Counted from the first letter of the stretch, positions 1 to 17,179 are shown. The stretch: 17,243 nucleotides of DNA from Escherichia coli (GCA_025544715.1 GCA_025544715.1_4109.6), one strand, 5' to 3'. Notes: a model not told the origin generated them from the sequence alone. Translations and numbers: made by a program.

Positions 1-60
1 ATCTGGTGCAGTACTGGTGAAGATGATTTTTGTAATCATTTCAATCTAGGGGAAGAGTGA
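1..60 (+). CDS. 3' end of an upstream ORF (partial; function unknown)
   Basis: Frame 1 is open from position 1 to TGA at 58-60, which overlaps the next ATG at 60 (TGATG coupling). Too short to classify. Confidence 0.4.
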   Translation: MWCSTGEDDFCNHFNLGEE

Positions 61-416
61 TGGAATTTGATTTTTTAATATCAGTACATTCTTTTAAGCA
101 CAGTTTTCAGTACTTTTGTAATTTAAACAAAGGTGATTTAATGCACAGTGCGAATGAGTATATTCATTACACTCAGGGTAAATTTACATTCATTGATTAC
201 AGTTCATTACAGTATCCACACCAAGATATGCCGGACTATACATTAATGGATACCGCAGAACTATTCCAAGAATCATTAGTATTTGATAAGAAGTACTTGT
301 GTACATTTGAAGAAGTTATTGCAATACAAAATGAAATGAAAGAGTATGCTGCTTTGCATAAACCCAATGCAAGTATTAATCAAGAATACAAATTCAATTT
401 AGGAATTCAAGAATGA
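60..416 (+). CDS. hypothetical protein, FQxS-motif paralog family, short subtype A
   Basis: ORF track 57..416; ATG at 60 preferred over GTG at 57, with GGGGAAGAG upstream. Motif AELFQESLVFD plus CTFEE..QNEMK, shared with the next ORF. Confidence 0.7.
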   Translation: MEFDFLISVHSFKHSFQYFCNLNKGDLMHSANEYIHYTQGKFTFIDYSSLQYPHQDMPDYTLMDTAELFQESLVFDKKYLCTFEEVIAIQNEMKEYAALHKPNASINQEYKFNLGIQE

Positions 417-772
417 CATATGATTATTCTATGTACTATTATAAGTTACCTAAAGGATGGGACTTGTGCTGTAATCTTATTAAGGGAGACTCGGAACATG
501 AGTTGAGTTTATATATGCACTACAAAGATTCTTGTTTTAAATTTATTCATGTATTACATGATGGCTATGACTATGAATCTGAGAGTCTTATAGATTATAC
601 AGTACTAGACGATGGTGAACTATTTCAGGCTGCATTAGTGTTTGATAAGAATAAGTACTCCTGTACATTTGAAGAAATGGTTTCTTTGCAAAATGAAATG
701 AAGAGATTTGAAAAAGAAAACGTATTTAATCCATCCCCATCAAGAACGAATAATTATTATTTCAATATATGA
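413..772 (+). CDS. hypothetical protein, FQxS-motif paralog family, short subtype A
   Basis: ATGA overlap with the upstream ORF. Motif GELFQAALVFD, CNLxKGD, CTFEE, QNEMK; clear paralog of 60..416. Confidence 0.7.
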   Translation: MTYDYSMYYYKLPKGWDLCCNLIKGDSEHELSLYMHYKDSCFKFIHVLHDGYDYESESLIDYTVLDDGELFQAALVFDKNKYSCTFEEMVSLQNEMKRFEKENVFNPSPSRTNNYYFNI

Positions 773-781
773 GATTATAAA

Positions 782-1276
782 ATGACATTACAGAGTTCAT
801 TGGAAAAAGCAAAGAAGATTCATGAGTACATGAATATGGCAAAAGAAGGTTCAGTTTACGGTGTTTTCAAAGACACAAGTACTCAATATTATGTACCGGA
901 TAACCTCCTTTATAATGACTGCTCAGATACAGAAACGTGCGTACTGGATACAGAAACGTGCATACTAGATACCGACCCTAAAGATTATGAATGTTTCATT
1001 GATATGCATTATGAGTACATGGTCTATATTAATGATGCAGATATTACCATCTACAGTACTGACTGCGATTCCGATGACATTATAATTCCGAGTGCAGTTC
1101 TGAATGACCCGTGGGATAGTGAAGAGTATTACTTCCAACAAAGTACTGTATACGATGATGAAGTACTTGATGTTATTATAATTATGTGGTACTTTAAAAG
1201 TATTGGTTCTGGGAACTTCTATTTCGATTACAAATACGTAAAGAAAACTGTAGATAACGGTATTAACAGGGGTTGA
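782..1276 (+). CDS. hypothetical protein, FQxS-motif paralog family, subtype B
   Basis: N-terminus MTLQSSLEKAKKIHEY; C-terminus PWDSEEYYFQQSTVYDDEVLDVIIIMWYFK..FYFD. Contains an in-frame 21-bp tandem duplication (DTETCVL/DTETCIL). Confidence 0.8.
   Translation: MTLQSSLEKAKKIHEYMNMAKEGSVYGVFKDTSTQYYVPDNLLYNDCSDTETCVLDTETCILDTDPKDYECFIDMHYEYMVYINDADITIYSTDCDSDDIIIPSAVLNDPWDSEEYYFQQSTVYDDEVLDVIIIMWYFKSIGSGNFYFDYKYVKKTVDNGINRG
926..967 (+). repeat. in-frame 21-bp tandem duplication within a CDS
   Basis: GATACAGAAACGTGCGTACTG (926-946) followed by GATACAGAAACGTGCATACTA (947-967), 19/21 identical, encoding DTETCVL then DTETCIL. Confidence 0.8.
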
Positions 1277-1277
1277 A

Positions 1278-1748
1278 ATGAGTTTAGAAAGAGCATTAGA
1301 GATTGCGAAGTTAATTGATTTATGCAGCAAAGAAATTGTAGCAAATTGTCTCAATGGATATCTATTCAAGGAAGGTAAATCATATTGTCGAATGATATAC
1401 GATGACAGTAGTGAATATATCCATATGTATGAAGAAAACTTAGATGATTCTGACATAGTACTCACAGGATGTGATGTTAATTTGGAAGATAATTACATGT
1501 ACTTCTGCCGTGATGCTGATATTTTAATCCAAGATTCATTAATTCAAACAGGTGCACCAGAGGTATATCTTCCGTATTCAGTACTGGATAATAACTGGGG
1601 TAGTGAAGATTACTATTTCCAGCAGAGTACTATATATAATGAAGATATACTTGACAAACTTGTTATTTCTTGGTACTTTCATAACACGGATTATAGTAGC
1701 TTCTACATAGACTTGGATCTACTAAGAGTACTTAAAGAGGATATATGA
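1278..1748 (+). CDS. hypothetical protein, FQxS-motif paralog family, subtype B
   Basis: AGGGG RBS upstream. N-terminus MSLERALEIAKLI; C-terminus NWGSEDYYFQQSTIYNEDILDKLVISWYF. Confidence 0.8.
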   Translation: MSLERALEIAKLIDLCSKEIVANCLNGYLFKEGKSYCRMIYDDSSEYIHMYEENLDDSDIVLTGCDVNLEDNYMYFCRDADILIQDSLIQTGAPEVYLPYSVLDNNWGSEDYYFQQSTIYNEDILDKLVISWYFHNTDYSSFYIDLDLLRVLKEDI

Positions 1749-2188
1749 GTTTAGAAAGAGCACTAGAATTAGCCAACAAAATACATCAGTACCATGATAA
1801 AATAAAAAGTGGGTTCTATGCTGATAAAGTACATGCATATGGGAATGAATATTATCTCACAGGAGTAAAGAGATACTCTAATGATATTTTACTTATGGGT
1901 CATGATAAAGACTATACTATACAGTACTCTTCATGTAGTCAATATACTAGTTTTATGGTATATATTCCTGGTACTAAGATTACTTTTGACACATCAAATA
2001 CACCTGTTGACTTCGGGGTACTTGATGGCCCGTGGGGTACTGAAGAGTATTACTTCCAACAGAGTCTCATTTTTAACCAAGAAATGCTTGATTCCTTGGT
2101 TGTGTTGTGGTACTTTAAGGAATTGAATTTTGAACCATTCTTTCTTGACTGGGGGTCATGTGAGTATTTAATTTCAGGGGATTTGTAA
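1745..2188 (+). CDS. hypothetical protein, FQxS-motif paralog family, subtype B
   Basis: ATGA overlap, AGAGGA RBS. N-terminus MSLERALELANKIHQY; C-terminus PWGTEEYYFQQSLIFNQEMLDSLVVLWYFK. Confidence 0.8.
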   Translation: MSLERALELANKIHQYHDKIKSGFYADKVHAYGNEYYLTGVKRYSNDILLMGHDKDYTIQYSSCSQYTSFMVYIPGTKITFDTSNTPVDFGVLDGPWGTEEYYFQQSLIFNQEMLDSLVVLWYFKELNFEPFFLDWGSCEYLISGDL

Positions 2189-2676
2189 TGTCGTTACAAA
2201 GTGCATTGAAAGAAGCAAAGAAAATTCATGAGTTCATGATTATGGTACAGGAAGGTTCAGTACCTGGTGTGTATAAAACATCTGATACGGAATTCTTCGT
2301 TAAGGATAGAGATGATTATGACGAGTCCGAGATATGTGCAGAAACATTAGTACTGCACACTGATACTGGTGACAGTGATAACTGTGAATATCATATGTAC
2401 AATCAGTACATTAGTTATTGCCGTAATGAAGATATTACCATCTACAACACAGATAGTGATGCTGATGACACTATTATTCCTTATTCAGTACTGGAAGGTC
2501 CGTGGGATAGTGAAGAGTTTTACTTCCAGAATAGTACTATCTACAATGAAGAAGAACTGGATGTTATTGTGATTATGTGGTATTTCAAAAGTATTGACTC
2601 CAGTAGTTTCTATTTTGATTATGAATATGTAGAGAATACAGTAGGAGAAGGTAATGTCATTACAAAGTGCTCTTGA
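2188..2676 (+). CDS. hypothetical protein, FQxS-motif paralog family, subtype B
   Basis: TAATG overlap, AGGGGA RBS. N-terminus MSLQSALKEAKKIHEF; C-terminus PWDSEEFYFQNSTIYNEEELDVIVIMWYFK; very close to 782..1276. Confidence 0.8.
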   Translation: MSLQSALKEAKKIHEFMIMVQEGSVPGVYKTSDTEFFVKDRDDYDESEICAETLVLHTDTGDSDNCEYHMYNQYISYCRNEDITIYNTDSDADDTIIPYSVLEGPWDSEEFYFQNSTIYNEEELDVIVIMWYFKSIDSSSFYFDYEYVENTVGEGNVITKCS

Positions 2677-3106
2677 AAAAGCAAAAGAACTACATGGATA
2701 CTTTGAAGATATAAAGGCCGGAAAGTTTAAAGAAGTGTACAAAGCCGAGAACGGTAACTACTACAAAGATGAAATGTATAATAACTCCGTTGGTGTAAGG
2801 GTTATTCTTGGGTTGAATTCCAATAGCCCAGTGTCGTATTCGGAATACAATAGAGATGCAGAATTCATTAGTTATGTTGAAAATGGTAGCATTCGTTTTA
2901 TTAATAGACAAAAACCATTAATTTTGAATTATGAAGTACTGGATGGTCCGTGGGATAGTAAAGAGTATTACTTCCAAAACAGTACTGTATACGATGATGA
3001 AGTACTTGAAGCATTAGTTATTATGTGGTACTTAAAGAGTGTTAACTGTCCTCGATTTTATTTGGATTTCGAAGAACTTCGTAAAGATCCAGAAGGTATA
3101 GAATGA
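2654..3106 (+). CDS. hypothetical protein, FQxS-motif paralog family, subtype B
   Basis: AGGAGAAGG RBS before ATG 2654; overlaps the upstream ORF by 23 nt. N-terminus MSLQSALEKAKELHGY; C-terminus PWDSKEYYFQNSTVYDDEVLEALVIMWYLK. Confidence 0.8.
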   Translation: MSLQSALEKAKELHGYFEDIKAGKFKEVYKAENGNYYKDEMYNNSVGVRVILGLNSNSPVSYSEYNRDAEFISYVENGSIRFINRQKPLILNYEVLDGPWDSKEYYFQNSTVYDDEVLEALVIMWYLKSVNCPRFYLDFEELRKDPEGIE

Positions 3107-3417
3107 AAAACTTATTCAGTGTTCAGTACGTTCCTGGTGAAATTGGTTTATTGTATCTATTTGACCATGATAATTCATTATTACTAGTAGTGAAGAAATG
3201 CCAAGCTAGTTCGTTTGTTGAATACATTCACGATAGTGAATACATTCCTGATTTCCTAGAGTGTGATTATCACGATGAACATGAATCATTTATTTTTCAG
3301 GAATCACTCGTATGGGATAAGTCGATTAACTTCTTTACGTTAATTGAATTACAAAAGCAGGTGAAGTATCATTGGGATTACTTAATTACACAGGATTACA
3401 TTGAGATTGAAACATAA
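3103..3417 (+). CDS. hypothetical protein, FQxS-motif paralog family, short subtype A
   Basis: ATGA overlap, GAAGG RBS. Motif ESFIFQESLVWD. Confidence 0.7.
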   Translation: MKNLFSVQYVPGEIGLLYLFDHDNSLLLVVKKCQASSFVEYIHDSEYIPDFLECDYHDEHESFIFQESLVWDKSINFFTLIELQKQVKYHWDYLITQDYIEIET

Positions 3418-3725
3418 TGACTAAAAATGAATTTGATTCACTTTGTACGGTTTATAATTCATTGACAGAAATACCTGACTTTATTAATTACATTTCAGCG
3501 TTAAATCATATTATGCATAGTTTTGAACAATCGTTTGAAAAGAAATATTCTGGTAGAAAAGTTCTATGTCATATGTCAATGTACTTAGGAGATGGTGAGC
3601 CTTTCACTACCAGTACTACATGTGAAATAAAAAAATATAATATATTATTGGGCACAATAGAATTCACAGTATCCAATGGTGGTAGTTATATGTACTTTAG
3701 AGATGGTGTGGTTGAATTATTATGA
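3417..3725 (+). CDS. hypothetical small protein (no family motif)
   Basis: TAATG overlap with the upstream ORF; 102 aa; lacks the FQxS core. Coding status rests on coupling and the absence of alternatives. Confidence 0.55.
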   Translation: MTKNEFDSLCTVYNSLTEIPDFINYISALNHIMHSFEQSFEKKYSGRKVLCHMSMYLGDGEPFTTSTTCEIKKYNILLGTIEFTVSNGGSYMYFRDGVVELL

Positions 3726-4168
3726 GTTACGAAAGTGATCTTAAACATGCTGAAGAATTAGTTAATATAGTAAAGTTCTTTCAAAATAATGTAAAGTACT
3801 TAGACGACAAAGGGGCATATATTAGTACTATAAGTGTTGGTACAGATATTCTAGGATTAGGTAATGAATATAAGTACGAGTCCCATGATTATGATTTGGA
3901 ATTCAAGTACTTCGAATGGAATTCTGGAACTTTCTATTCAATCGATGAAAGTGGGGAATATTTAGAATTCTCCGAAGAAGAAGTACTATTCTTAAATTCA
4001 GAATATGCTTACTTCCAGTACAGTACTATATACCCAAGTAGTGCATTAAGAGCTTTAGTAGTTTTTAATGCATTTCTGAAAGAGAACTTTAATAATTCTA
4101 TATTCATTGATTTAAATTATGTATATGAACTAAATCAGGTGATATATATGGAGTCCAGAAAAAAATGA
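3722..4168 (+). CDS. hypothetical protein, FQxS-motif paralog family, subtype B variant
   Basis: ATGA overlap. N-terminus MSYESDLKHAEELVNIVKFF; motif EYAYFQYSTIY; paralog of the next ORF. Confidence 0.75.
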   Translation: MSYESDLKHAEELVNIVKFFQNNVKYLDDKGAYISTISVGTDILGLGNEYKYESHDYDLEFKYFEWNSGTFYSIDESGEYLEFSEEEVLFLNSEYAYFQYSTIYPSSALRALVVFNAFLKENFNNSIFIDLNYVYELNQVIYMESRKK

Positions 4169-4614
4169 GTTACGAAAGTGCAATCAAGAAAGCAAATGAT
4201 ATTCTAAAAGTTGTTAAGTTCTTCAAAGAAAATCCTGAATATCTAGATGATGAAAACCATGATCACGATGAGAGATTGAGACGAAAAATTGTCGCTTTAT
4301 TTGACACTAATGCAGATAATTATAGTCTAATTGAGTTAGCATACGATTATATTTCATTGAACCGAAACGGACATTTAGTTAATATAGAAAGACATGAGAG
4401 TGAAGAATCTTTTAAAATTTCAGACATTTTATCCCTGAGTACTGAAGAAGGGTACTTCCAGGGTAGTACTGTTTATGAACAAGGAACGCTTGACAATCTA
4501 TGCACATTCAGTGTAATATATCAGAAATCAGTACTGGATGTATTTTATCTTGACACTGCTGAACTGGATACACTAATCAATTTTGTTACTACTGAAGAGG
4601 CCACATTTGAGTGA
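4165..4614 (+). CDS. hypothetical protein, FQxS-motif paralog family, subtype B variant
   Basis: ATGA overlap. N-terminus MSYESAIKKANDILKVVKFF; motif EEGYFQGSTVY. Confidence 0.75.
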   Translation: MSYESAIKKANDILKVVKFFKENPEYLDDENHDHDERLRRKIVALFDTNADNYSLIELAYDYISLNRNGHLVNIERHESEESFKISDILSLSTEEGYFQGSTVYEQGTLDNLCTFSVIYQKSVLDVFYLDTAELDTLINFVTTEEATFE

Positions 4615-5147
4615 TGAAAGTTAACATCAATGACTTTGATGCATTACAAGATTTATCAAAAAAGATTCGAACTATCGTACCAGTACTCAAAAAATGTAGT
4701 ACTGGTTTAATCGATCCTAGTACTGTTGTTAATGAGAAGTACAATTTTCATCGTGCATTACAGGGTACAGGTGCATTTCAGAAGTGTGATGTACGTGAGA
4801 AACACGTAATTGATACATCATTGTTTTCTATTGGTGCACCTGTGTCGAATAATTCTATTTTCCTGGATAACGCAGGAAATATTCAACAATTAACATTTAA
4901 GAAAAGGAAAAAGAACAATAACATTGGTGTGTACGCGATGAAGTGGGGTCAACCTGATTTGAAGCGTGAAATTCACATCCCTAAGTACAATTACAATTCA
5001 TTCGACGAACAGTGTTTTCAACTATCGTGTACTGACCCTGACTATGCAATCATTCAGTTCTATATGGAATTGCAGATAGCATTTAACAGTAATTTATATA
5101 TTAACTTGTTGGCAATGAACATCGATGAAGTATTCAAAAACATTTAA
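4614..5147 (+). CDS. hypothetical protein, divergent FQxS-motif paralog
   Basis: ORF track 4611..5147 begins at GTG; ATG at 4614 overlaps the upstream TGA (TGATG). Motif DEQCFQLSCTD. Confidence 0.6.
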   Translation: MKVNINDFDALQDLSKKIRTIVPVLKKCSTGLIDPSTVVNEKYNFHRALQGTGAFQKCDVREKHVIDTSLFSIGAPVSNNSIFLDNAGNIQQLTFKKRKKNNNIGVYAMKWGQPDLKREIHIPKYNYNSFDEQCFQLSCTDPDYAIIQFYMELQIAFNSNLYINLLAMNIDEVFKNI

Positions 5148-5343
5148 TCGAATTGAATACATGAGAACTGTGAGTGCAGTGTGGGACATATGGTTCACTA
5201 CTAAACCAAAAATGGATTACCATGACTTTAAGCTCTTGTTCTTCGTTGGCTCTAACAAACAGGATGTTGCAATGAAGGGTTACATTGAGCACTTACAGGA
5301 ACTAATCCAGAAGAGAATATATGAAAATAATAGACCAAAATGA
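5125..5343 (+). CDS. hypothetical small protein (no family motif)
   Basis: ORF track 5125..5343; alternative in-frame ATG at 5161, just after the upstream stop. No clear RBS. Start uncertain. Confidence 0.45.
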   Translation: MKYSKTFNRIEYMRTVSAVWDIWFTTKPKMDYHDFKLLFFVGSNKQDVAMKGYIEHLQELIQKRIYENNRPK

Positions 5344-5512
5344 CATTGCTAAACTATTCAATATATATTCTACTAGAATGATGCAAACAGACTCATATAG
5401 TACTGAATTCAAAGAGTTGAAAGTACTGATGTACTTGGGAACCCAATATCAGGAACAAGTTATTTTGGAATATATTAATTCGTTGAAGAAGGATATCCGT
5501 TATGTACGATGA
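5321..5512 (+). CDS. hypothetical small protein (no family motif)
   Basis: 63-aa ORF overlapping the upstream stop region and overlapped by the downstream ATG at 5502; fits the coupled chain. No motif. Confidence 0.45.
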   Translation: MKIIDQNDIAKLFNIYSTRMMQTDSYSTEFKELKVLMYLGTQYQEQVILEYINSLKKDIRYVR

Positions 5513-6062
5513 TTTAGATCTTGCGTTTGAACGTATGGTAATTTTAATGCAATGTGCAGAAATGCATGAAACAATCCGTCGCACCAAAGGGATTGAATAT
5601 ACAAGTAAACTATTCTCATACGAAAGTCGTCGAGGGATGGATCATTTTTACTGCACTGATTGTTCAAAGTTTTCAGTACTGAAATATTATCATCCTACTG
5701 TTTCCAATAATAGTTTAATATCCACATATGACGGTGATCTGTTTAGTGTAATGTATGACACATTACATCCATCAATTTCAATCTATAAAGATTGCGATAG
5801 TAGTTTATCGTATATAATTGAAGATTACTTATCCCCTAACACTGAAGAGAATATTTTTCAGAACAGTGTATTGCATGATGAATTAAGTATAAAATGCATC
5901 TATATGTTCAATAAGTTAAAAGAATACGCTGATAATAATTACTTAATTGATGAGTTAGCAGTATTGTCTGTTTCCGTTTTTAATACAAATGATATTGATA
6001 TGAAATACTATAATGAGATTTGTAAAGTACATCATATGTATAAGGAACTATTATGCCAATAA
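5502..6062 (+). CDS. hypothetical protein, FQxS-motif paralog family, long subtype C
   Basis: Overlaps the upstream stop. Motif EENIFQNSVLHD followed by a hydrophobic segment. Confidence 0.7.
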   Translation: MYDDLDLAFERMVILMQCAEMHETIRRTKGIEYTSKLFSYESRRGMDHFYCTDCSKFSVLKYYHPTVSNNSLISTYDGDLFSVMYDTLHPSISIYKDCDSSLSYIIEDYLSPNTEENIFQNSVLHDELSIKCIYMFNKLKEYADNNYLIDELAVLSVSVFNTNDIDMKYYNEICKVHHMYKELLCQ

Positions 6063-7710: not shown

Positions 7711-7717
7711 GGTTTAT

Positions 7718-10497: not shown

Positions 10498-11023
10498 GAA
10501 TGTAAAATGCATTACTGACATTTGTATAAAATTAATGAAAATTTTCATTAACCCAAAATACAAAAAACGTTCATTACATCATAATATTGATGAGCATTGT
10601 ACCATTAATATACTAGGTAGTATTCTTGATGTAAAATATGATGGTAAAATGTTATTCGGCATAAGAGAAGAGAAAATAGATGATGCATTCTTTTCCTGTA
10701 AAGATAAATTTGAACCTTCTGATTATAAAGTAATTATTCGTGATGATAGCATCTACATTAGTAGTGATTATTCAAATTACTTCGATAAAATATACACTGA
10801 AAACGTTGACTACCATTATGAAATGATAGATTTACCAGTAACAGACATTGATATGGAGAGAATCAAATTTTCATTATCAGATAATGAGTACTTAGGTATA
10901 CAAACATATTATTCACTACAAGGAAAGATTCCACCTGCTATGTATATAAGGATTGAGATTGGTAATGTATTCAATGATAAGGTTATATCAATTGCTGATA
11001 AAATATTGAGGGTTGAATTATGA
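10481..11023 (+). CDS. hypothetical protein, possibly a degenerate family member
   Basis: GAGGG RBS 6 nt before ATG 10481. 180 aa; core motif not clearly recognisable. Confidence 0.6.
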   Translation: MYIENENVKCITDICIKLMKIFINPKYKKRSLHHNIDEHCTINILGSILDVKYDGKMLFGIREEKIDDAFFSCKDKFEPSDYKVIIRDDSIYISSDYSNYFDKIYTENVDYHYEMIDLPVTDIDMERIKFSLSDNEYLGIQTYYSLQGKIPPAMYIRIEIGNVFNDKVISIADKILRVEL

Positions 11024-11583
11024 ATATCAATGATTACCAATTTCATAGGCTTGAATTTCGTCATTGTGTTGCATTTGCAAAAACATTGATGTGCATCATT
11101 GACACTCTTTCATCCAAACAATTTCGTAAGGATAATGATTTATTTCTGAAAAAAGGTCGTGTAACATCAACCGATATCGGTATTGAACTATTTGTTGATA
11201 TCAGTGTTGATACCGGAGACAGTACAAGGGTTGGTTGTATAGGTCATATTGGTACACATTGCTTCACATGGAATCCAAATACAAGTCAAGTGCGAATTGA
11301 TTATAGAAATTCACGTTGGGTTGATCTTAGTACTGAATCAGATTTAGAATCAGCTATGTTCCAGCTAAGTTTAATTCACAATCCTAATGAACTTCTTTAC
11401 ATTATTACTTTCAGTTATCTGTTACAAAACTACGATAATCCATCAGGGTTTTTCATAGAATCGGATATAGAAGAAATTATGGAAGAGTTTCCTAGTTTAA
11501 AGGATATTCTGGTAGAAAAAGATTTCTATGAAGACTTCAGAGATTTATACGACATGCACTTGGAGTTATTTAAGAATGGATAA
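11020..11583 (+). CDS. hypothetical protein, FQxS-motif paralog family, long subtype C
   Basis: ATGA overlap, GAGGG RBS. Motif ESAMFQLSLIHN followed by a hydrophobic segment. Confidence 0.7.
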   Translation: MNINDYQFHRLEFRHCVAFAKTLMCIIDTLSSKQFRKDNDLFLKKGRVTSTDIGIELFVDISVDTGDSTRVGCIGHIGTHCFTWNPNTSQVRIDYRNSRWVDLSTESDLESAMFQLSLIHNPNELLYIITFSYLLQNYDNPSGFFIESDIEEIMEEFPSLKDILVEKDFYEDFRDLYDMHLELFKNG

Positions 11584-12094
11584 AGATGATATTCTAATTA
11601 GACTAATTAATAGTTTAATAAAGTTCTCAAATAATGATGTCGATACATACAAAGTAGGGGATATTGAATTTAAATCATTTGGTATGTACGGTGAGGATAA
11701 AACATATTATGCGTCAATGAAATTTCAAGATTTTCACGAGATGTTAATATCGTTATCATATGAAGATGTTGATCCAAGATGGAGTTCCAGTATTTCACTA
11801 TCGAGAATGGTAATTCGTAGTAAGCATCGTTATATTTCGTCAAAGAATACTCCTAACTTGATTAATATTGTGTTGAATGAAAATACAAATCCCCTATCTA
11901 AACATGATATCGTACCGTTAACCGATGAAGTTCTTTTTCAATTGAGTACCATTTGTGATGAAGATGTGATATCATGTATGAAAATTTATGAGAAGGTTGG
12001 GAGTGATATTCCCATGAACTATTACCTAACTATAGATGGAACGTACCTTCGAGATGAGGTTCTAGCGTACATTGACAGTGTTTTACCAAAATAA
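11576..12094 (+). CDS. hypothetical protein, FQxS-motif paralog family, long subtype C
   Basis: ORF track 11528..12094; the in-frame ATG at 11576 overlaps the upstream stop (ATGGATAA), with GGAG upstream. Motif DEVLFQLSTICD. Followed directly by a terminator. Confidence 0.65.
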   Translation: MDKDDILIRLINSLIKFSNNDVDTYKVGDIEFKSFGMYGEDKTYYASMKFQDFHEMLISLSYEDVDPRWSSSISLSRMVIRSKHRYISSKNTPNLINIVLNENTNPLSKHDIVPLTDEVLFQLSTICDEDVISCMKIYEKVGSDIPMNYYLTIDGTYLRDEVLAYIDSVLPK

Positions 12095-12120
12095 AGACCC
12101 GTATGGGTCTTTTTGTGTTT
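12093..12120 (+). terminator. intrinsic (rho-independent) terminator
   Basis: Perfect 8-bp stem AAAGACCC / GGGTCTTT with loop GTAT, followed by a T-rich tract (TTTTTGTGTTT), immediately after stop codon 12092-12094. Confidence 0.7.
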
Positions 12121-12125
12121 ATGGC

Positions 12126-12154
12126 TTTACAAGAGCATTCAGGTGTGTTATACT
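12126..12154 (+). promoter_or_regulatory. sigma70-type promoter with extended -10 (TTTACA-N17-TGtTATACT)
   Basis: -35 TTTACA at 12126-12131, 17-nt spacer, TG at 12146-12147, -10 TATACT at 12149-12154; lies between the terminator and the GGAGG RBS of the next ORF. Confidence 0.55.
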
Positions 12155-12181
12155 TGATTTTAAATAGAGTTGGAGGAATCT

Positions 12182-12748
12182 ATGAGTACTGAATTAATTA
12201 AAGAAGTCACATTACTTCTGAAGCATTGTTTTAAGTTCATTCCTGATACTGGTTCCCGCCAGTACATTAAAGTTAATGAGAAATATAACATCAATATCCT
12301 TGTATCTGAAACTGCGAGCAGTTATGCTAACATTGAGTTGGATTCTGAAGAAAAATATACAGTATTACAAATCATAGCAGATGTACAACGTAAACAAGAT
12401 TATCGTTCTTCATTTTACAACGATCATCTATGTGTTTCCTCAAACTTCAGTGAGAATAAAATTGTGTATAAAAATTTATACACACATGAAGTGATTGATA
12501 CATATAATTATAAAATTACATCTGATGAATACAATGTGCTAATGTTCAACGCAAACCTTTTATATGATGCCAGTACTGTACGCTGTTTAGAGTTAGCATA
12601 TAAAATTCCAAAGATCATGGAAAGAAAAGATTTGATTCACTTTAAAACTATTTTAAAATACAGTACAAAAGAATTAGAGGATTTAGTACAGGCTCTTAAG
12701 AATTTCATTAATGAACATGTACCTGTTAAATTCGAGGATGCACAATGA
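12182..12748 (+). CDS. hypothetical protein, possibly a degenerate family member
   Basis: ORF track 12170 begins at TTG; ATG at 12182 is preceded by GGAGG (12172-12176). Only a weak motif remnant (NVLMFNANLLYD). Confidence 0.65.
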   Translation: MSTELIKEVTLLLKHCFKFIPDTGSRQYIKVNEKYNINILVSETASSYANIELDSEEKYTVLQIIADVQRKQDYRSSFYNDHLCVSSNFSENKIVYKNLYTHEVIDTYNYKITSDEYNVLMFNANLLYDASTVRCLELAYKIPKIMERKDLIHFKTILKYSTKELEDLVQALKNFINEHVPVKFEDAQ

Positions 12749-13329
12749 ACCATATCAGAACTAAAATTTTGAGACTCATGCATGACATTGCAGAACTTTC
12801 AGAGATTCATGACATTACGGAAATTGTTGAATTTGATAATTATCGACTGAAAATTGAAAACAAATCCAAACATCGTTTTGGTTCAGTTCAGTTGGATGTA
12901 TATAAAACTTATGAATTTTCTAAAAAAATTAAAAGTTCATGGGATACGATTACTATGTACATTCGCACATCCAGAAATCGTGAACGTATTGGTTCTATTT
13001 CTTATAATATGGTATTTGCGAATGCATTACATGAAAAAATGAATAAAATTGTAGAATCTAATTTCAGTGAAGATGATGGTTTTATTGGGTTGGATGTTCC
13101 ACCAGAATTAGATCAAAGTGAAGATATTCGAGATGCATTCATTTTCCAGAAATCATTGTTGGACAATTACAAAGAATTCGAGTACTTAATGCTTTGTTAC
13201 GATACTGCAAAAATTCTTGATTGTGGTGAACTAGTTATGTACAATGATTTTATCAATTGCAAGACTGATGTTCTGAATACACTACTTCAAAATATAGAAT
13301 CTGTTAAGGAAAAATATGAACGCTTATAG
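12745..13329 (+). CDS. hypothetical protein, FQxS-motif paralog family, long subtype C
   Basis: ATGA overlap, GAGGA RBS. Motif DAFIFQKSLLDN. Confidence 0.7.
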   Translation: MNHIRTKILRLMHDIAELSEIHDITEIVEFDNYRLKIENKSKHRFGSVQLDVYKTYEFSKKIKSSWDTITMYIRTSRNRERIGSISYNMVFANALHEKMNKIVESNFSEDDGFIGLDVPPELDQSEDIRDAFIFQKSLLDNYKEFEYLMLCYDTAKILDCGELVMYNDFINCKTDVLNTLLQNIESVKEKYERL

Positions 13330-13897
13330 TTATATGACAGAACGCCATCAATTATTATATGATATCAGTAAAAAAATGCTATCAATTGTTGGTAGTGCGA
13401 AAGAAATTGAAAAACAATATCTCATCCGTGATGTAGCAATTTCATCTAAATGTTGGTCAAATGAATATTACGACCACGGTATTCTGACTATTTCAGGGGC
13501 CAGAAATATTTGTATTGTAAAAAATAAAAGTAAAAGTAATAAAGAGTGTGAGATTAGAACCGATATACAAATTAAGGATGATGGAAGTTTTTCACATCAC
13601 CCATTCCATATTAGTACTGTTGGTGTTTTATATAATATTAAAGTACTATTCGGTGATGAAGAGTATGTGTTAAAAGCTATCAATCCAGAATCAAGTACAG
13701 TTGAAGAAGAACTGTTCCAGATGAGCACTGTTATACCTGAAGAGGTTCTTAGTACTGTTATTTTTTGTAGTTTAATTTATCATGAATACAAAAAGAACCA
13801 GTTCGATTTCCACATGTTAGGAACGTACATCTTCAATAATTTGAATGTAGATCGTTTAAATGCATTAAATTCAGCAATGGATAAGGTGCTACAATGA
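13316..13897 (+). CDS. hypothetical protein, FQxS-motif paralog family, long subtype C
   Basis: AAGGAAA RBS. Motif EEELFQMSTVI followed by a hydrophobic segment. Confidence 0.7.
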   Translation: MNAYSYMTERHQLLYDISKKMLSIVGSAKEIEKQYLIRDVAISSKCWSNEYYDHGILTISGARNICIVKNKSKSNKECEIRTDIQIKDDGSFSHHPFHISTVGVLYNIKVLFGDEEYVLKAINPESSTVEEELFQMSTVIPEEVLSTVIFCSLIYHEYKKNQFDFHMLGTYIFNNLNVDRLNALNSAMDKVLQ

Positions 13898-14322
13898 CAA
13901 GAGATGATTGTTTGTACATATGGGATATAATTGAAACTACACTTTCAAATCCAGAAAATTATAAAACAAAAAAAAGACAACGACACAAAATATGGATAGA
14001 TTTGTTCGTTGAGGGCATACACGCAGTGACTATTTGGGATTCACCGAGGGCATCAGCATCTACTCTATTGGACAATGAATGCATTGATTGCATTAATTCC
14101 ACTTTTCATCTCTACGGTACTACATTTTTCGGTACATTTCTGGATATTGAAAGTAAAGATGATATTGATTCACTTGCGTTACAATACCAAGTACTGTATA
14201 ATACTAAATTAATTTACGATTTAGTACTAGCTTCTTATGTGTATAAATTAATGATGAAATATAATCATATTTCTGTTTCAGTTTATACTAAGGATATTCT
14301 TTCATTAAGAGACAAAACATGA
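13894..14322 (+). CDS. hypothetical protein, possibly a degenerate family member
   Basis: ATGA overlap. Degenerate motif SLALQYQVLYN. Confidence 0.6.
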   Translation: MTRDDCLYIWDIIETTLSNPENYKTKKRQRHKIWIDLFVEGIHAVTIWDSPRASASTLLDNECIDCINSTFHLYGTTFFGTFLDIESKDDIDSLALQYQVLYNTKLIYDLVLASYVYKLMMKYNHISVSVYTKDILSLRDKT

Positions 14323-14828
14323 GTTTATTAAATGCACGCGAATTAGTTGAGATGTATGAGATTTTGTCTTCATATAAAAATTCTCATGGAGATGTGATTC
14401 TCGACAAAAAGTTCCATGTCAGTGTTGAACATATATCAAATATAGATATGATTTCTTTGGTGGAAAGTAATAAGTCAGGTCTTGAACGCGATATCATGCG
14501 TTTGATTTATATTCCCAAACCATCATATACTAATGATAGTTCAATTAGTAATGAGACATTCATGTATAGTCCCGGTACGGATTCTACTATAGTATCGCTG
14601 TCCAATAAATCAATGGGTACTTTCCAATTCATCTATACCAGTACTGATAACATTGAAGAAATTGAATTTCAAAACAATACATTAAGTCCATGTAGTAGTG
14701 TTATAACCTTTATGTCATATCTATGGTCAACTAAAACAAGTGCTGTTGTATATAGTTCAAATTATACACAAGATAGTATTGTTGAATCATATAAAGTTCT
14801 AAAGGAATACTATGAAAATAACAAATGA
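14319..14828 (+). CDS. hypothetical protein, FQxS-motif paralog family, long subtype C
   Basis: ATGA overlap. N-terminus MSLLNARELVEMYEIL; motif EEIEFQNNTLS. Confidence 0.65.
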   Translation: MSLLNARELVEMYEILSSYKNSHGDVILDKKFHVSVEHISNIDMISLVESNKSGLERDIMRLIYIPKPSYTNDSSISNETFMYSPGTDSTIVSLSNKSMGTFQFIYTSTDNIEEIEFQNNTLSPCSSVITFMSYLWSTKTSAVVYSSNYTQDSIVESYKVLKEYYENNK

Positions 14829-15393
14829 TTTTATTAAAAGTGTAGTACACCCTATGCTTAGTGTTATGAAAAAATTACAGACACTCCCAGAAGATAATGA
14901 TTTCAAGTACAATCGTTTTGATTCAGATGTGTTTTGTATTGAAATTGAAATTAATAACAATCGTAATTTACATTTAAAATTCAAAGAATCGTCAAGTCCG
15001 TACTACAACTTTGATATGAATTTTAAAATAGATACTGACATTGAAGAAAACGTAATATCAAATCATACTAGCAAAAATGGTTTTATGCATAGAACTACTA
15101 TGTACAATAATAAAAATAGTATTATATCTAAATGGAATCATCAATTCACTAAAATTTGTGAAATTGAATATAGTGATTTTGGTGAAGAGCATTACTTTCA
15201 GTTAAGTACAATTCATGAACTTCCACCTTATGATTATGTTAAAACATGGTTTGATATTCATAATATAATTGATGATGCAATCAAACTTCCATTTGGTGTA
15301 TCAATATCATATACTGCTCCTAAAACATTTGTTTTTACTGAAGATATGATTATGAAAAAGATATGGGCAATTATCCCACTTATGATGGATTAA
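14812..15393 (+). CDS. hypothetical protein, FQxS-motif paralog family, long subtype C
   Basis: AAGGAATAC upstream of ATG 14812. Motif EEHYFQLSTIHE. Followed by a terminator. Confidence 0.7.
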   Translation: MKITNDFIKSVVHPMLSVMKKLQTLPEDNDFKYNRFDSDVFCIEIEINNNRNLHLKFKESSSPYYNFDMNFKIDTDIEENVISNHTSKNGFMHRTTMYNNKNSIISKWNHQFTKICEIEYSDFGEEHYFQLSTIHELPPYDYVKTWFDIHNIIDDAIKLPFGVSISYTAPKTFVFTEDMIMKKIWAIIPLMMD

Positions 15394-15399
15394 ATTTGT

Positions 15400-15425
15400 A
15401 CCAGGGGTTGACTCTGGTATTTTTG
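15400..15425 (+). terminator. intrinsic terminator (candidate)
   Basis: Stem TACCAG / CTGGTA with a 9-nt loop (GGGTTGACT), then TTTTT, directly after stop codon 15391-15393. Confidence 0.5.
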
Positions 15426-15437
15426 TATGATACATTG
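15409..15437 (+). promoter_or_regulatory. candidate promoter (TTGACT-N17-TACATT)
   Basis: TTGACT at 15409-15414 inside the terminator loop, and a weak -10 (TACATT) 17 nt downstream; followed by strong RBS AAAGGAGA and ATG 15455. Weak -10, so low confidence. Confidence 0.3.
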
Positions 15438-15454
15438 TCCTAAAGGAGAATTTT

Positions 15455-16006
15455 ATGAACTACAATCATGATCTTTTTACATTATGTGCATCCAAATGTG
15501 TTGATGGATGGGCAGATAAAATCAATACCATAATTCATCGATATCTCGTCTTTAGTTCTCGTGCACGAAGTGAGGGAGCTATGGATTTCAAATATACACT
15601 ATCCATTGATGGTGTAACTATCCATGCAGACGAAGAACGTATGAGCATTAATTTGTATGATTCCTGTGTATTTGCTATTCACCAAAAGATGGGGAAAGGA
15701 TGGGGTTGTAATAACATTAACTCCAAAGCTATCTTTTGGGTTGGTCACCACCAGACCGTACTCGATCCTTCAATCAAATCTAATCTTTTAACCGACAACA
15801 TCGTTTATGATTTAGCGTACCCTGAAGAACTACATTTCCAGTTGAGTACATTACATAATTTGGCACACTACGATGATTGTTATAAAACATTAGAACTATG
15901 CCATTCCCTTGATCTTAAAGATAAATTGATACAAGTTTACCCTTCATTCTTTCATGAAGAAGTACAAAGTACACTAGATCATATTTTATATGGATACGAT
16001 AAATGA
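15455..16006 (+). CDS. hypothetical protein, FQxS-motif paralog family, long subtype C
   Basis: Strong RBS AAAGGAGA 4 nt upstream. Motif EELHFQLSTLHN. Confidence 0.75.
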   Translation: MNYNHDLFTLCASKCVDGWADKINTIIHRYLVFSSRARSEGAMDFKYTLSIDGVTIHADEERMSINLYDSCVFAIHQKMGKGWGCNNINSKAIFWVGHHQTVLDPSIKSNLLTDNIVYDLAYPEELHFQLSTLHNLAHYDDCYKTLELCHSLDLKDKLIQVYPSFFHEEVQSTLDHILYGYDK

Positions 16007-16605
16007 GAAAAAGTTATCAAGAAGCTATTGACTTAATTCGTGAAGTTATCAAGGTGGCTCCTGCTGCTATTGAGTTCAAGAAGTCCATATACAAGAAGTA
16101 TGGTTCAATGTCGAGTATGTGCTTTCAAAAGAAACGTAGAGCATTCACTACCCAGTACTGGAATGATTCTATCATCCTGAGCAATGAGACTCAGCGTATT
16201 TTAACACTAGAATCTGAACCTACTGATTACGGGGAAGGGAACATTTGTGTACCTGATTATGATGAAATTAACTTCAACTGCGGTGATTTTGAAACAACAT
16301 TATTACTTCATGAGGGTTATCCAGAAGGTGATGTATTAGCTGAGTACAATCCAAAAACTAAAATTCTCAAAAGTGGAATCCAGTTCACTATTAATAACAA
16401 AGATGATGTTCAAGCAGCACTGATGCAACTGAGTACAAGTGAACCTATCACTATTAGTGTAGAAGAGTTATGGGGAATTATTTCAGTACTCAATGAGTGC
16501 TACAAAGTAAAATCATTGCGTAAACACAGCATTATATTACATACCAATATGGCAAATATAAAATGTAAGCACATTCAAGAAATGGTGGTTCCAGATGGAC
16601 TTTAA
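16003..16605 (+). CDS. hypothetical protein, divergent family member
   Basis: ATGA overlap. Divergent motif AALMQLSTSE. Confidence 0.6.
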   Translation: MRKSYQEAIDLIREVIKVAPAAIEFKKSIYKKYGSMSSMCFQKKRRAFTTQYWNDSIILSNETQRILTLESEPTDYGEGNICVPDYDEINFNCGDFETTLLLHEGYPEGDVLAEYNPKTKILKSGIQFTINNKDDVQAALMQLSTSEPITISVEELWGIISVLNECYKVKSLRKHSIILHTNMANIKCKHIQEMVVPDGL

Positions 16606-17179
16606 AGAAATTGAAAGTAAGTTAAAGTACTTCAAAGATATCAAACTTCTTTGGAAAAAGTATAAAGTTGATTACAATTTCAGTGATGATGAGACAATAA
16701 AATACATTGAGATTAATATCAAAATCAAGTTCAAGAATAATAATTATGGTGAAGTAACCTTAAATCATACTGGTATATCACTCAAGGACTATGATGGTAC
16801 AACACTCGCATATTTTGACTTCACACCAGAACCAGGTGAAACACTACTTAGTGAGATAAATTCCTATGACATGGAAGTGTTCGGCGGGAATCCGTTACTG
16901 TTCCGACTTTCTGAAGAGTGGAGTGAAGAGTACTACACTTACAAAGATGGTGTAGTACTTGATATTCATGGAGAAGTTGTGAATGACTTGGAAGAACGTT
17001 TGTTCCAAGAATTGTGTGTTTCAAATACTTCATATGCATACAATCATATCCTTGACATGTTTGATTTATATAGTAAAATAGATGCTGAAATGAAGGCACA
17101 TGGTATTCATTACCTTACAATTAACGACTATGCTCAACTCGAAACCGCTGTGAAAGCATTGACTAAAGTACTGAAATAG
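16595..17179 (+). CDS. hypothetical protein, FQxS-motif paralog family, long subtype C
   Basis: Overlaps the upstream ORF by 11 nt. Motif EERLFQELCVSN. Confidence 0.65.
   Translation: MDFKEIESKLKYFKDIKLLWKKYKVDYNFSDDETIKYIEINIKIKFKNNNYGEVTLNHTGISLKDYDGTTLAYFDFTPEPGETLLSEINSYDMEVFGGNPLLFRLSEEWSEEYYTYKDGVVLDIHGEVVNDLEERLFQELCVSNTSYAYNHILDMFDLYSKIDAEMKAHGIHYLTINDYAQLETAVKALTKVLK

Follow-up and report, generated by a model that had tools for sequence, protein, structure and literature searches.

A tandem family of small proteins with a shared FQ motif in the left arm of 121Q-like jumbo phages

Early accessory genes of T4-type phages occupy 'hyperplastic' regions under strong sigma70 early promoters and are mostly unrelated singletons. 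The MGF360/505 families of ASFV and the ankyrin/PRANC families of poxviruses have known repeat folds and are documented to act in host range or immune evasion, and bacterial polyimmunity arrays (SUKH/Smi1-type immunity proteins, for example) consist of tandem, small, divergent alpha+beta proteins. Among jumbo phages, Bacillus phage G encodes a ~35-copy zinc-ribbon family (Iyer et al. 2021, PMC7824862), with a function inferred from the domain only, and gp93/162/163 of PhiKZ (PF12699) form a paralogous head/inner-body family whose single copies tolerate disruption (PMC12676376).

The 17,243-nt stretch of DNA analysed here (the window) shares ~98% identity with Escherichia jumbo phage 121Q (Asteriusvirus) and comes from the accessory region in the left arm of a jumbo myovirus of the 121Q-like (Asteriusvirus) type. 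It is tiled by 37 ORFs, all on the + strand, and no competing gene was found on the - strand. Like the phage G family, the family encoded there repeats one small domain dozens of times in a single jumbo-phage genome; unlike it, the family has no recognisable fold or domain (that of phage G has a recognisable DNA-binding fold) and spans three genera, partly as 1:1 orthologues, rather than being expanded in one phage. PhiKZ gp93/162/163 are likewise a multi-copy paralogous family of a jumbo phage, but theirs are head-packaged proteins, some of them injected, whereas the array family is absent from the phAPEC6 virion proteome (see below), and Pfam gave no PF12699 match in it. The T4 early regions share the packed, overlapping, co-oriented small ORFs, the near-consensus promoters with extended TG and the non-structural character; their ORFs are mostly unrelated singletons, whereas ~40 array ORFs are one family. 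No T4 homologue of any member was detectable in a global search, which gave 131 matches, all small, the sampled ones being from the RaK2-like phage group or metagenomes. The ASFV and poxvirus families have no sequence or structural relation to the array and offer only a works-like analogy, in tandem arrays towards one end of the genome, divergent surfaces on a conserved scaffold and, by the same analogy, copy-number differences between strains and a possibly comparable non-structural role. Polyimmunity arrays are similar in being tandem and made of small, divergent alpha+beta proteins.

BLASTP all-vs-all linked 22 window ORFs. With an iterated HMM built over the window and the 121Q, EC.P1 and RaK2 regions, and a search set of 847 ORFs including - strand decoys, 25 of the 37 window ORFs were members at E<1e-4; the decoys gave zero matches, and shuffled proteins reached E=0.13 at best. 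These 25 ORFs are statistically robust members of one family, and the large tandem co-oriented paralogue family of the original prediction is genuine. Four others (w30, w33, w37 and w12) are probable or possible members by sequence, so the predicted 'at least 29' paralogues is roughly correct if taken as the upper end, and 'nearly every ORF' overstated a share of 25–29 of 37. The members are listed below with their HMM E-values.

57–416, + strand: w01, short class, 119 aa, ...TAELFQESLVFD, motif present; E 5e-18
413–772, + strand: w02, short class, 119 aa, DGELFQAALVFD, motif S replaced by A; E 3e-12
782–1276, + strand: w03, medium class, 164 aa, SEEYYFQQSTVYD; E 3e-24
1278–1748, + strand: w04, medium class, 156 aa; E 1e-18
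1745–2188, + strand: w05, medium class, 147 aa; E 3e-23
2188–2676, + strand: w06, medium class, 162 aa, modelled protein; E 3e-26
2654–3106, + strand: w07, medium class, 150 aa; E 1e-24
3103–3417, + strand: w08, short class, 104 aa, HESFIFQESLVWD; E 2e-8
3722–4168, + strand: w10, medium class, 148 aa; E 1e-17
4165–4614, + strand: w11, medium class, 149 aa, TEEGYFQGSTVYE; E 2e-21
4611–5147, + strand: w12, possible divergent member, 178 aa, basic; exact FQLS motif; hhalign P 0.0097 (motif region)
5502–6062, + strand: w15, long class, 186 aa, TEENIFQNSVLHD; E 2e-12
6661–7023, + strand: w17, short class, 120 aa, low-confidence model; E 3e-15
6947–7390, + strand: w18, member, likely start 7013 (121Q annotation; 121Q gene 384); E 2e-15
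7369–7710, + strand: w19, short class, 113 aa; E 1e-17
7670–8254, + strand: w20, long class, likely start 7718; E 9e-21
8314–8790, + strand: w21, medium class, 158 aa; E 5e-25
8787–9281, + strand: w22, medium class, 164 aa, SEEMYFQGSCIHD; E 3e-23
9247–9609, + strand: w23, short class, 120 aa; E 1e-16
9593–10006, + strand: w24, short class, 137 aa; E 2e-14
9994–10497, + strand: w25, medium class, likely start 10006, basic, pI 9.1; E 6e-23
11020–11583, + strand: w27, long class, 187 aa; E 7e-19
11528–12094, + strand: w28, long class, likely start 11576, TDEVLFQLSTICD; E 7e-17
12745–13329, + strand: w30, probable divergent member, 194 aa, RDAFIFQKSLLDN; E 5e-4; hhalign P 0.007; exact FQKS
13316–13897, + strand: w31, long class, 193 aa; E 1e-11
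14319–14828, + strand: w33, probable divergent member, 169 aa, IEEIEFQNNTLS; E 6e-3; hhalign P 1.9e-4 over 60 columns
14812–15393, + strand: w34, long class, GEEHYFQLSTIHE; E 9e-10
15455–16006, + strand: w35, long class, 183 aa, PEELHFQLSTLHN; E 2e-8
16595–17179, + strand: w37, probable divergent member, 194 aa, LEERLFQELCVSN, motif S replaced by L; E 0.09; hhalign P 1.6e-4 (motif region)

The w12 motif (DEQCFQLSC) lies at the expected distance from the C-terminus, and its HMM score is not significant. The three predicted size classes are seen in the window (104–137, 147–167 and 183–194 aa), but the 131 database representatives are closer to bimodal. At ~105–195 aa, the members are usually acidic (median pI 4.8, net charge -9), all hydrophilic by their negative GRAVY, and probably cytoplasmic.

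The common core of the family is [ST]-E-E-x-x-F-Q-x-S-[TL], or in its longer form [ST]-E-E-x-x-F-Q-x-S-[TL]-[VIL]-[YFH]-[DN], with an amphipathic helix after it. Of the 37 ORFs, 26 contain FQxS, against 0.65 expected by chance (2000 shuffles, maximum 4); the motif appears 30 times in + frames and 5 times in - frames, and always stands 39–74 residues from the C-terminus. The Phe and Gln are invariant in alignments of 27, 39 and 92 sequences; in the 92 diverse homologues, where mean column identity is only 12%, they are the only two invariant positions, and the Glu and Ser are at least 90% conserved. The predicted shared C-terminal core is thereby borne out. Several conserved polar residues (D near -10, then E, E, Q and S) lie together in a span of ~20 residues. 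They would suit an enzyme family that uses Glu, Gln, Ser and the upstream Asp for catalysis or metal binding, with substrates that vary between paralogues. This is very unlikely given the paucity of invariant positions, and no conserved His, Lys, Arg or Cys is found anywhere in the 92-sequence alignment; moreover, the motif Ser is A, N, L or M in several members (frequently L or M in GAP32), no enzyme fold is similar, and the proteins are very small, with highly indel-prone sheets.

The array exceeds the window, reaching ~9 kb further upstream and ~15 kb further downstream in 121Q, where 40 members lie within a 47-kb stretch. EC.P1 has 42 members, Klebsiella phage RaK2 26 and Cronobacter phage GAP32 ~8, and the position is syntenic in all four phages. 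A 21-kb left terminal repeat was mapped by experiment in fEgEco12 (PMC13070987); the array starts a few kb past it, and its transcription is directed away from that end. It is surrounded by unknown small ORFs beside genes for a DNA methylase, a cytidylyltransferase and an RNA ligase, and structural genes are not adjacent. In the global search, 131 of 1.84e9 representatives matched, all of 65–208 aa and with no domain fusions; the sampled sources were Asteriusvirus-type phage genomes, ~355-kb contigs labelled E. coli, and metagenome contigs. Matches by tblastn came from Escherichia, Salmonella and Klebsiella jumbo phages only, and the family appears to be confined to RaK2-like jumbo phages.

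As predicted, no characterised domain could be assigned. Pfam, NCBIfam and PADLOC gave no match common to the family, the homologues of w11 are close orthologues only, none with a Pfam domain, and the PDB gave no match by sequence or by fold. Window proteins match PHROGs clusters phrog_9317, 12674, 13866, 15629 and 34017 at E 1e-53 to 1e-134, with weak cross-matches among the clusters, and the singleton-like PHROGs 32681, 22855, 38467 and 29816 also belong to the family. These clusters are the family members themselves, with function unassigned there; in PHROGs the single family is broken up into many clusters, and neither the FQ motif common to them nor their tandem arrangement is on record.

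The paralogues are ancient and distantly related to one another. Identity is 40% between w01 and w02 and 56% between w03 and w06, within the younger duplication block w03–w07, and dS exceeds 1 even in the closest pairs. Orthologues are kept across three genera: 121Q and RaK2 share 13 reciprocal-best pairs, the last five (in 121Q order) collinear in RaK2, and RaK2 holds the reciprocal-best orthologues of w22 (tblastn 32% identity, E 1e-7) and w27 (ORF424, 58.5 bits). This depth does not fit a fast-churning 'arsenal'. Family members nevertheless diverge faster between genera than the non-family neighbours embedded among them (26–41% versus 47–54% identity).

Window positions 3738–4164, within w10, have no match in 121Q or phAPEC6, and w10 is present in EC.P1, so copy number is polymorphic; 4 of 39 121Q members lack an orthologue in EC.P1. 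Such variation among close relatives, and an architecture that recalls bacterial polyimmunity loci by analogy (tandem, small, divergent proteins on one scaffold), would suit an 'immunity-like' role in competition between phages or superinfection exclusion, with paralogues neutralising effectors of rival phages or mobile elements and not host functions. We consider this improbable: most copies are inherited stably across genera, no solved immunity protein is similar in fold or sequence, and no toxin-like genes adjoin the array, its neighbours all being unknown-function PHROGs.

Each paralogue is under purifying selection and its copy is maintained. Between 121Q and EC.P1, dN/dS was 0.07–0.49 in all 35 orthologue pairs (median 0.26); the 62 neighbouring genes outside the family do not differ from them (median 0.22; p=0.47). 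Pooled over the pairs, dN/dS was 0.10 in the motif block and 0.37–0.46 in the beta-sheet region, and no region of the fold approached 1. The data thus uphold a conserved scaffold with far more variable flanks and leave the predicted diversifying selection unsupported. They also refute the idea of decaying duplicates without function (junk or mis-called ORFs), which we reject as having next to no chance of being right. All array genes are annotated 'hypothetical', and the Salmonella-host relative SD-6_S16 has many deletions across the array region; its losses, however, do not fall preferentially on the family (15.7% of family versus 27.8% of non-family bases missing), and the retained orthologues and the strong strand and frame bias of the motif also argue against decay.

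An AlphaFold model of w06, built from a shallow alignment of 27 paralogues, was confident (pLDDT 89, pTM 0.83), with the helical motif region as its most confident part (pLDDT 97–98). The short-class w17 was modelled poorly (pLDDT 66; four strands and two helices), with its motif region at pLDDT 95. As modelled, the scaffold common to all members begins with an N-terminal helix, which is optional, and continues with an antiparallel beta-sheet that is indel-prone and varies greatly in length, a motif-bearing helix-turn-helix and an amphipathic helix. The predicted N-terminal helix holds for the medium and long classes (modelled helix 3–21, pLDDT 94–96) and is missing in the short class. None of the members resembles a solved anti-defence, host-takeover or immunity protein.

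The modelled helix bears on two readings of the motif. The TEV/3C-type cleavage consensus is E-x-x-Y-x-Q with cleavage before G/S, and w11 (EEGYFQGS), w22 (EEMYFQGS) and several RaK2 members (EEGYFQGS) match the TEV consensus literally, as if the proteins were processed at a mimic of such a site. Processing is extremely improbable, however, with the motif placed in a helix and not in an accessible loop, P1' being G/S in few members only and P3 not Tyr in many (ELFQES, for example); no 3C-like protease was seen in the regions examined, and the virion proteome of phAPEC6 yielded a single protease, a prohead core scaffold/protease (PMC7247149). Alternatively, the EExxFQxS helix might dock one common partner (a host protease, RNA polymerase or a phage enzyme) while the variable sheet brings different substrates. 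F-box or PRANC proteins of eukaryotic viruses recruit substrates to a common partner in this way. The invariance of F-Q amid such divergence, the lowest dN/dS in the motif block and the fixed distance of the motif from the C-terminus in every size class speak for docking. We nevertheless regard it as rather unlikely, because the same residues can be read structurally in the model, as a Phe buried in the fold, a polar pair of Glu and Gln, and helix caps ([ST]EE where one helix starts, [DN] for the helix that follows), because a confident helix is expected of a core, and because the Ser is so often L or M in GAP32.

With 121Q start sites, adjacent genes overlap by 1–23 nt at 25 of 35 junctions (by 4 nt at ten of these), and translational coupling along the array is plausible. 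Three junctions are gaps of 59–75 nt with putative promoters or terminators, so the row would comprise several operons and not one:

8251–8280, + strand: sigma70-type promoter with a perfect (12/12) match, TTGACA-18-TATAAT plus extended -10 TG, in the gap of 59 nt upstream of w21 (same site in 121Q)
12093–12154, + strand: intrinsic terminator hairpin (12093–12112), then sigma70-like promoter TTTACA-17-TATACT with TG (12126–12154)
15398–15436, + strand: terminator hairpin (15398–15420) overlapping sigma70-like promoter TTGACT-17-TACATT, before w35

Near-consensus sigma70 promoters occupy the only sizeable intergenic gaps of the window and the 121Q array, five of six with the extended -10 TG. 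Over the whole window, promoter-like sites are no commoner than in shuffled sequence (107 versus 112), and the candidate sites are persuasive only where they lie in intergenic gaps. From the promoter consensus only, we infer that the array is expressed early. Mass spectrometry of phAPEC6 virions, a close relative, detected 62 proteins, and the array orthologues (gp409c-445c) are all missing from that set (PMC7247149). That absence would also be expected of late morphogenetic helpers, that is, assembly chaperones or scaffolds discarded before maturation, and RaK2-like phages do have exceptionally complex sets of fibres and hair-like appendages (PMC7247149; PMC5259590). We give this reading little credence, since the array is not beside structural genes, its promoters are of the sigma70 and not the late type, and GAP32, of the same hairy-phage group (PMC5259590), has only ~8 copies.

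An early accessory role fits circumstantially with the absence from the virion proteome, the sigma70-type promoters, the acidic, hydrophilic proteins and the place in the left arm after the terminal repeat. Our preferred reading, held tentatively, is that the family forms a battery of cytoplasmic proteins, built on a single scaffold and produced early, that serve in host interaction or anti-defence; we infer that they would act by binding host or defence targets. Arms-race genes less typically show purifying selection and deep orthology, which counts against such a battery, as does the possibility that the invariant F-Q and the near-invariant E and S mark a shared active or docking site, which, if true, would mean a common rather than a diversified function. 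In a host-interaction battery, the host sigma70 RNA polymerase would transcribe several short operons, so that the proteins are made early and left out of the virion; the conserved motif would keep the fold together, and the divergent surfaces of the sheet and N-terminal helix would give each paralogue a separate binding partner. Jointly, the paralogues may thus provide the phage with a standing means of host takeover or anti-defence, each retained for its own target.

The window matched positions 169,587–186,975 of Escherichia phage 121Q (KM507819, 348.5 kb, Asteriusvirus) at 97.9% identity over 98% of its length, and about 20 further E. coli and Salmonella jumbo phages were similarly close to it. 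Jumbo phages of the RaK2/121Q type are therapy candidates against E. coli, Klebsiella, and Cronobacter, and more than 80% of their genes are unannotated; every gene of 121Q and of the E. coli phage phAPEC6 under the match is labelled 'hypothetical protein'. The window is AT-rich (GC 28–36%) and its GC skew is positive throughout, which fits a single direction of transcription. It is tiled by 37 plus-strand ORFs of 63–200 aa (w01–w37, in order), the minus-strand ORFs being short and nested. When starts are taken from the 121Q annotation, 25 of 35 gene junctions overlap by 1–23 nt, seven are gaps of 1–26 nt, and three are gaps of 59–75 nt. For w29 (12170–12748), the TTG at 12170 that opens the longest ORF is probably the wrong start; an ATG at 12182 has a properly spaced GGAGGA upstream and gives a protein beginning MSTELIKE.

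All-against-all BLASTP (E<1e-3) joined 22 of the 37 ORFs into a single component, the FQ family of small proteins sharing [ST]-E-E-x-x-F-Q-x-S-[TL]. An iterated profile search took in 847 ORFs of at least 40 aa, read on either strand from the window and its counterparts in the phages 121Q, EC.P1, and RaK2 (a Klebsiella phage). It converged at E<1e-4 on 25 ORFs in the window, 40 in 121Q, 42 in EC.P1, and 26 in RaK2. No minus-strand ORF in that set matched, and composition-preserving shuffles of the window proteins scored E 0.13 at best. Of the 37 ORFs, 26 contain FQxS; 2000 shuffles gave an expectation of 0.65 and never more than 4. The pattern is found 30 times in the three plus frames versus five times in the three minus frames, and it invariably lies 39–74 residues before the C-terminus. 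Phe and Gln do not vary in any of three MAFFT alignments, made from 27 window members, 39 121Q members, and 92 diverse homologues; the last alignment has a mean column identity of 12%, with Glu (-3) and Ser (+2) at least 90% conserved. Profile–profile comparison, in which genes outside the array score P 0.06–0.5, identified w33 and w37 as probable members (P about 2e-4) and w30, w32, w12, and w36 as possible ones (P 0.006–0.03; w32 at 0.006 and w36 at 0.03 are both weak), and gave no sequence support for membership of w09, w13, w14, w16, w26, and w29 (P 0.08–0.54). A degenerate motif-like stretch lies near the expected position in w16, w26, w29, w32, and w36. The large tandem family of the original prediction, put at 29 or more paralogues, is borne out: of the 37 ORFs, 25 are robust members, and the recognisable ones number up to 29. 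The three length classes ascribed to it are seen in the window (104–137, 147–167, and 183–194 aa), whereas the distribution is closer to bimodal over 131 database representatives.

w13 (5125–5343) and w14 (5321–5512) are members of another family. This second tandem paralogue family (phrog_4148) consists of ~70-aa, mostly basic proteins and also occupies 1120–6195 and 7157–7608 of L001, the 47-kb stretch of 121Q that holds the array. BLASTP single linkage collects 27 ORFs in it: w13, w14, the orthologue of each in 121Q, and a tandem run of 23 genes (121Q genes ~319–346) immediately upstream of the FQ-family array.

An AlphaFold2 model of w06, built on the 27-paralogue alignment, reached pLDDT 89 and pTM 0.83 and contains the following elements (w06 residues):

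3–21: helix
between 28 and 97: seven beta-strands
99–103 and 109–115: short helices, the second bearing E109-E110-x-x-F113-Q114
116–120: turn, S116-T-I-Y-N120
121–135: amphipathic helix
141–144: strand (the 'FYFD' block)
145–153: helix

The model superposes on independently predicted paralogues from BFVD with TM scores of 0.77–0.84 (121Q) and 0.58–0.73 (RaK2). A model of a short-class member was poor overall (pLDDT 66). In it the same two helices come after four strands, and the motif region reaches pLDDT 95. Judged by predicted secondary structure, the conserved residues may be read structurally: [ST]EE would sit at a helix N-terminus, the Phe would be buried, Glu and Gln would form an i/i+4 pair, and [DN] would cap the next helix. 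With some reserve, at a little short of an even chance, we favour a reading in which the members are cytoplasmic binding proteins, made early and sharing one scaffold. The motif would serve as its structural keystone, and the divergent surfaces of the sheet and N-helix would give each paralogue its own specificity. On this reading the array would amount to a permanent stock of factors for host interaction or anti-defence, every copy kept for its own target. The main rival, which we regard as unlikely, takes the invariant patch to dock a common partner, making the members hub adaptors.

Foldseek against 350,542 chains gave a best E of 4.7, no fold similarity to solved anti-defence or host-takeover proteins (Ocr/ArdA-type DNA mimics, Acr, AsiA-like, and others) was found, and profile searches of PDB sequences matched at chance level only. 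Scanning 27 aligned members against Pfam-A and NCBIfam returned scattered one-member matches below cut-off (E 0.001–0.09), and the PADLOC-DB defence models two single-member matches (E 0.012–0.016), none of them common to the family. The earlier impression that the motif belongs to no characterised domain therefore stands for shared Pfam, NCBIfam, and PADLOC matches as for PDB sequences and folds. An enzyme family seems scarcely probable. In PHROGs the proteins are present, divided among many clusters of unknown function (9317, 12674, 13866, and 15629; E 1e-53 to 1e-66 for the home cluster, with sister clusters at 1e-3 to 1e-13); the match carries no functional information. Members have a median pI of 4.8 and a net charge of -9, with w03, w04, and w06 at -21 to -26; w19, w24, and w25 depart from the mostly acidic remainder in being neutral or basic. 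Acidity by itself is undiagnostic of DNA-mimic anti-restriction proteins. GRAVY is negative in every member, that is, all are hydrophilic overall.

Three specific leads were dropped. Weak matches to LAGLIDADG (I-OnuI; E 0.04) were lost with a deeper profile and had no fold support, and superposition on a frataxin/CyaY-like alpha-beta sandwich was not significant. A TEV/3C substrate (E-x-x-Y-x-Q then G/S in an accessible unstructured segment) is matched literally in a few members (w11, w22); this reading is essentially excluded, since P3 and P1' vary in most members and the motif is helical at pLDDT 97–98.

HMMER, run exhaustively over the representatives of 1.84 billion clusters at 50% identity, returned 131 proteins at E ≤ 0.001, of which 121 carry FQx[SNTA]. 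All are 65–208 aa long and all but one match in one continuous stretch, so domain fusion is not evident among them. Clusters sampled from these matches are tiny and derive from Asteriusvirus-type phages, ~355-kb contigs deposited as E. coli, and metagenome contigs, several of which hold two to four members each. From two separate entry points, tblastn reached only Escherichia, Salmonella, and Klebsiella jumbo phages. Fold-level matches in BFVD were uncharacterised proteins only, from 121Q, SP27, RaK2, and GAP32 (a Cronobacter phage), with weaker ones from Serratia phage BF and Yersinia phages fHe-Yen9-03/04. A role of the proteins in inter-phage immunity we consider quite unlikely. Several NCBI 'Escherichia coli' assemblies hold ~355–360-kb contigs encoding FQ-family phage proteins, which points to whole Asteriusvirus genomes deposited as E. 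coli contigs, through a carrier state, pseudolysogeny, or contamination.

The 121Q array exceeds the window, its members spanning gene 342 to gene 436 (~41 kb), and in 121Q and EC.P1 the family takes up ~40 of roughly 600 genes (~7%) of a ~350-kb genome. An array of this kind occupies the corresponding place in RaK2 (Alcyoneusvirus), upstream of a conserved DNA methylase/cytidylyltransferase/RNA ligase block, with the motif in the form [ST]EExxFQxST[LIV]Y[DN]. The syntenic site of GAP32 (Mimasvirus) carries about eight long-class ORFs, five of them at E ≤ 1e-3, in which F-Q is retained and Ser is frequently L or M. Three non-family genes interspersed in the array fall outside the family profile and have clear orthologues (47–54% identity) in each of the three genera; the interspersed non-family ORFs and conserved neighbours have no Pfam domains and fall only in PHROGs of unknown function.

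One non-family gene of ~140 aa (121Q gene 404, L001 32335–32748; RaK2 ORF435, 33678–34088 of the RaK2 locus L005; GAP32_055) lies at the same relative site inside the array in the three genera. Its product reads MI.(F/Y)H(A/C)STVKI(N/D).FYIP(Y/F)GGLHFGG..., is ~47% identical between them, well above the surrounding family members, and belongs to phrog_11632 (unknown function, no Pfam match). Downstream of the window, and shortly before the methylase/cytidylyltransferase block, 612 nt (L001 38159–38770) carry no annotated gene in a region that has no other gaps; similar gaps occur in RaK2 (L005 39607–40345) and GAP32 (35143–35804). 121Q gene 418 (L001 39917–40450) is annotated 'ribonucleotide reductase A / NrdB', and its homologues in 555 phage records are labelled cytidylyltransferase or NMN adenylyltransferase; the NrdB label is probably a mis-annotation.

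Between 121Q and RaK2, 31 of 66 members find their best match in the other genus, and 13 pairs are reciprocal best hits, the last five in 121Q order being collinear in RaK2. The closest paralogues in the window, w03 and w06, are 56% identical, yet dS exceeds 1. Taken together, the cross-genus matches, the reciprocal pairs, and this synonymous divergence indicate that most duplications are older than the split of these genera. Copy number rose from ~8 to 26–42, and w03–w07 is a local, somewhat younger block. Gene turnover in the array is still ongoing to some degree: w10 (3738–4164) is present in EC.P1 and precisely missing from 121Q and phAPEC6, two phages that are 96–98% identical elsewhere, and four 121Q members have no EC.P1 orthologue. 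w10 is a unit-length copy-number polymorphism beside its paralogue w11 (both proteins begin MSYES), and its exact sequence is on record solely on a 1.3-kb metagenome contig.

Over 35 reciprocal-best 121Q/EC.P1 orthologue pairs (NG86; ~85% DNA identity), dN/dS ranged from 0.07 to 0.49 with a median of 0.26, against a median of 0.22 for 62 neighbouring non-family genes (Mann–Whitney p 0.47). When codons were pooled by profile column between the same phages (NG86), the SEEELFQESL block gave 0.10, the C-terminal helices 0.23–0.29, and parts of the sheet and the N-helix end 0.37–0.46. Diversifying selection, as originally proposed, thus finds no support, gene-wide and region-pooled values all lying below 0.5. 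The accompanying picture of a scaffold with a variable middle survives in part: the core is strongly constrained and the flanks are more relaxed, and positive selection is unseen at this resolution. Selection tests at the paralogue level are uninformative, since the closest pairs are saturated at synonymous sites. Judged by sequence identity between genera, family members (26–41%) have drifted further at deep divergence than the embedded non-family genes (47–54%). Non-functional duplicates are essentially excluded by purifying selection on all copies and by their retention across genera.

The Salmonella phage SD-6_S16 (OR699182.1 68000–117000; 319 kb) lacks dozens of 30–2500-bp segments throughout the 47-kb region relative to L001; the lengths of many are not divisible by 3, and 668 annotated, fragmentary genes are listed in the record. 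A reading of these deletions as a sign that the family is dispensable was rejected, because they span the whole region without enrichment in family genes (15.7% of family bases lost vs 27.8% of non-family bases). Losses in the SD series may be real genome erosion or an assembly artefact.

The window has three sizeable intergenic gaps, and all bear sigma70-type signals, as follows:

8251–8280: promoter TTGACA-18-(TG)-TATAAT in an intergenic gap, a perfect 12/12 match
12093–12112: terminator in an intergenic gap, then, at 12126, promoter TTTACA-17-(TG)-TATACT
15398–15420: terminator in an intergenic gap, overlapping promoter TTGACT-17-TACATT at 15408

The same promoter architecture, with an extended TG in all cases, is found in 121Q array gaps at L001 6559, 10544, 23397, 27272, and 30554. 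Promoter-like matches elsewhere were no more numerous than in shuffled sequence, so the gap sites alone are persuasive. The GAP32 annotation marks TTGACA/TATAAT promoters in the small-ORF block upstream of its array. The genome ends of phage fEgEco12, mapped experimentally, are direct terminal repeats of 20,993 bp (PMC13070987). On its plus strand the w06 orthologue is found at 39.8 kb and that of w22 at 45.7 kb; the array therefore begins a few kb past the left repeat and is transcribed away from that end. Mass spectrometry of phAPEC6 virions detected 62 proteins, and the orthologues gp409c–445c of this phage (97% identical) are not among them, although low-copy proteins could escape detection (PMC7247149). 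By analogy with T4-type biology, the array looks like an early, host-RNA-polymerase-driven, non-structural region. Morphogenetic helpers, which might be missing from finished particles, are very unlikely next to these sigma70-type promoters.

That RaK2-like phages contain many paralogues is already on record, generically only; 22 paralogous ORFs are recorded for CBB (PMC5259590). In the papers examined on RaK2, CBB, phAPEC6, Sharanji, and fEgEco12, paralogues are mentioned only generically or not at all, and the family, its motif, size, deep orthology, and unmatched fold are undescribed; the passages on paralogues and expansions in a survey of 224 jumbo phages (Iyer et al.) do not mention this expansion. 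By type, the array belongs with the other lineage-specific expansions of small accessory proteins in large viruses; what it contains is an uncharacterised family whose fold is apparently new. A bolder reading is possible though doubtful: an undescribed fold limited to RaK2-like jumbo phages and expanded from ~8 copies (GAP32) to ~40 (121Q/EC.P1) would form a modular battery, in which an invariant helix-turn core nucleates the fold or docks a common hub and the divergent sheets each bind a target of their own in the host or its defences. The FQ family would then play in phages the part that multigene host-range families play in large eukaryotic DNA viruses.

The family is old, every copy is under purifying selection, no relative outside the phage group was detectable among the 1.84 billion representatives, and its predicted fold is unmatched among solved structures. 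Recognising it as one family turns dozens of separate 'hypothetical proteins' into one tractable problem. Absent a function, this would be a well-documented yet ordinary paralogue expansion of a large virus. If the members are target-specific modulators of host or defence, the array would be a ready library of ~40 natural binders on a common scaffold, and would partly explain the extra coding capacity of jumbo phages.
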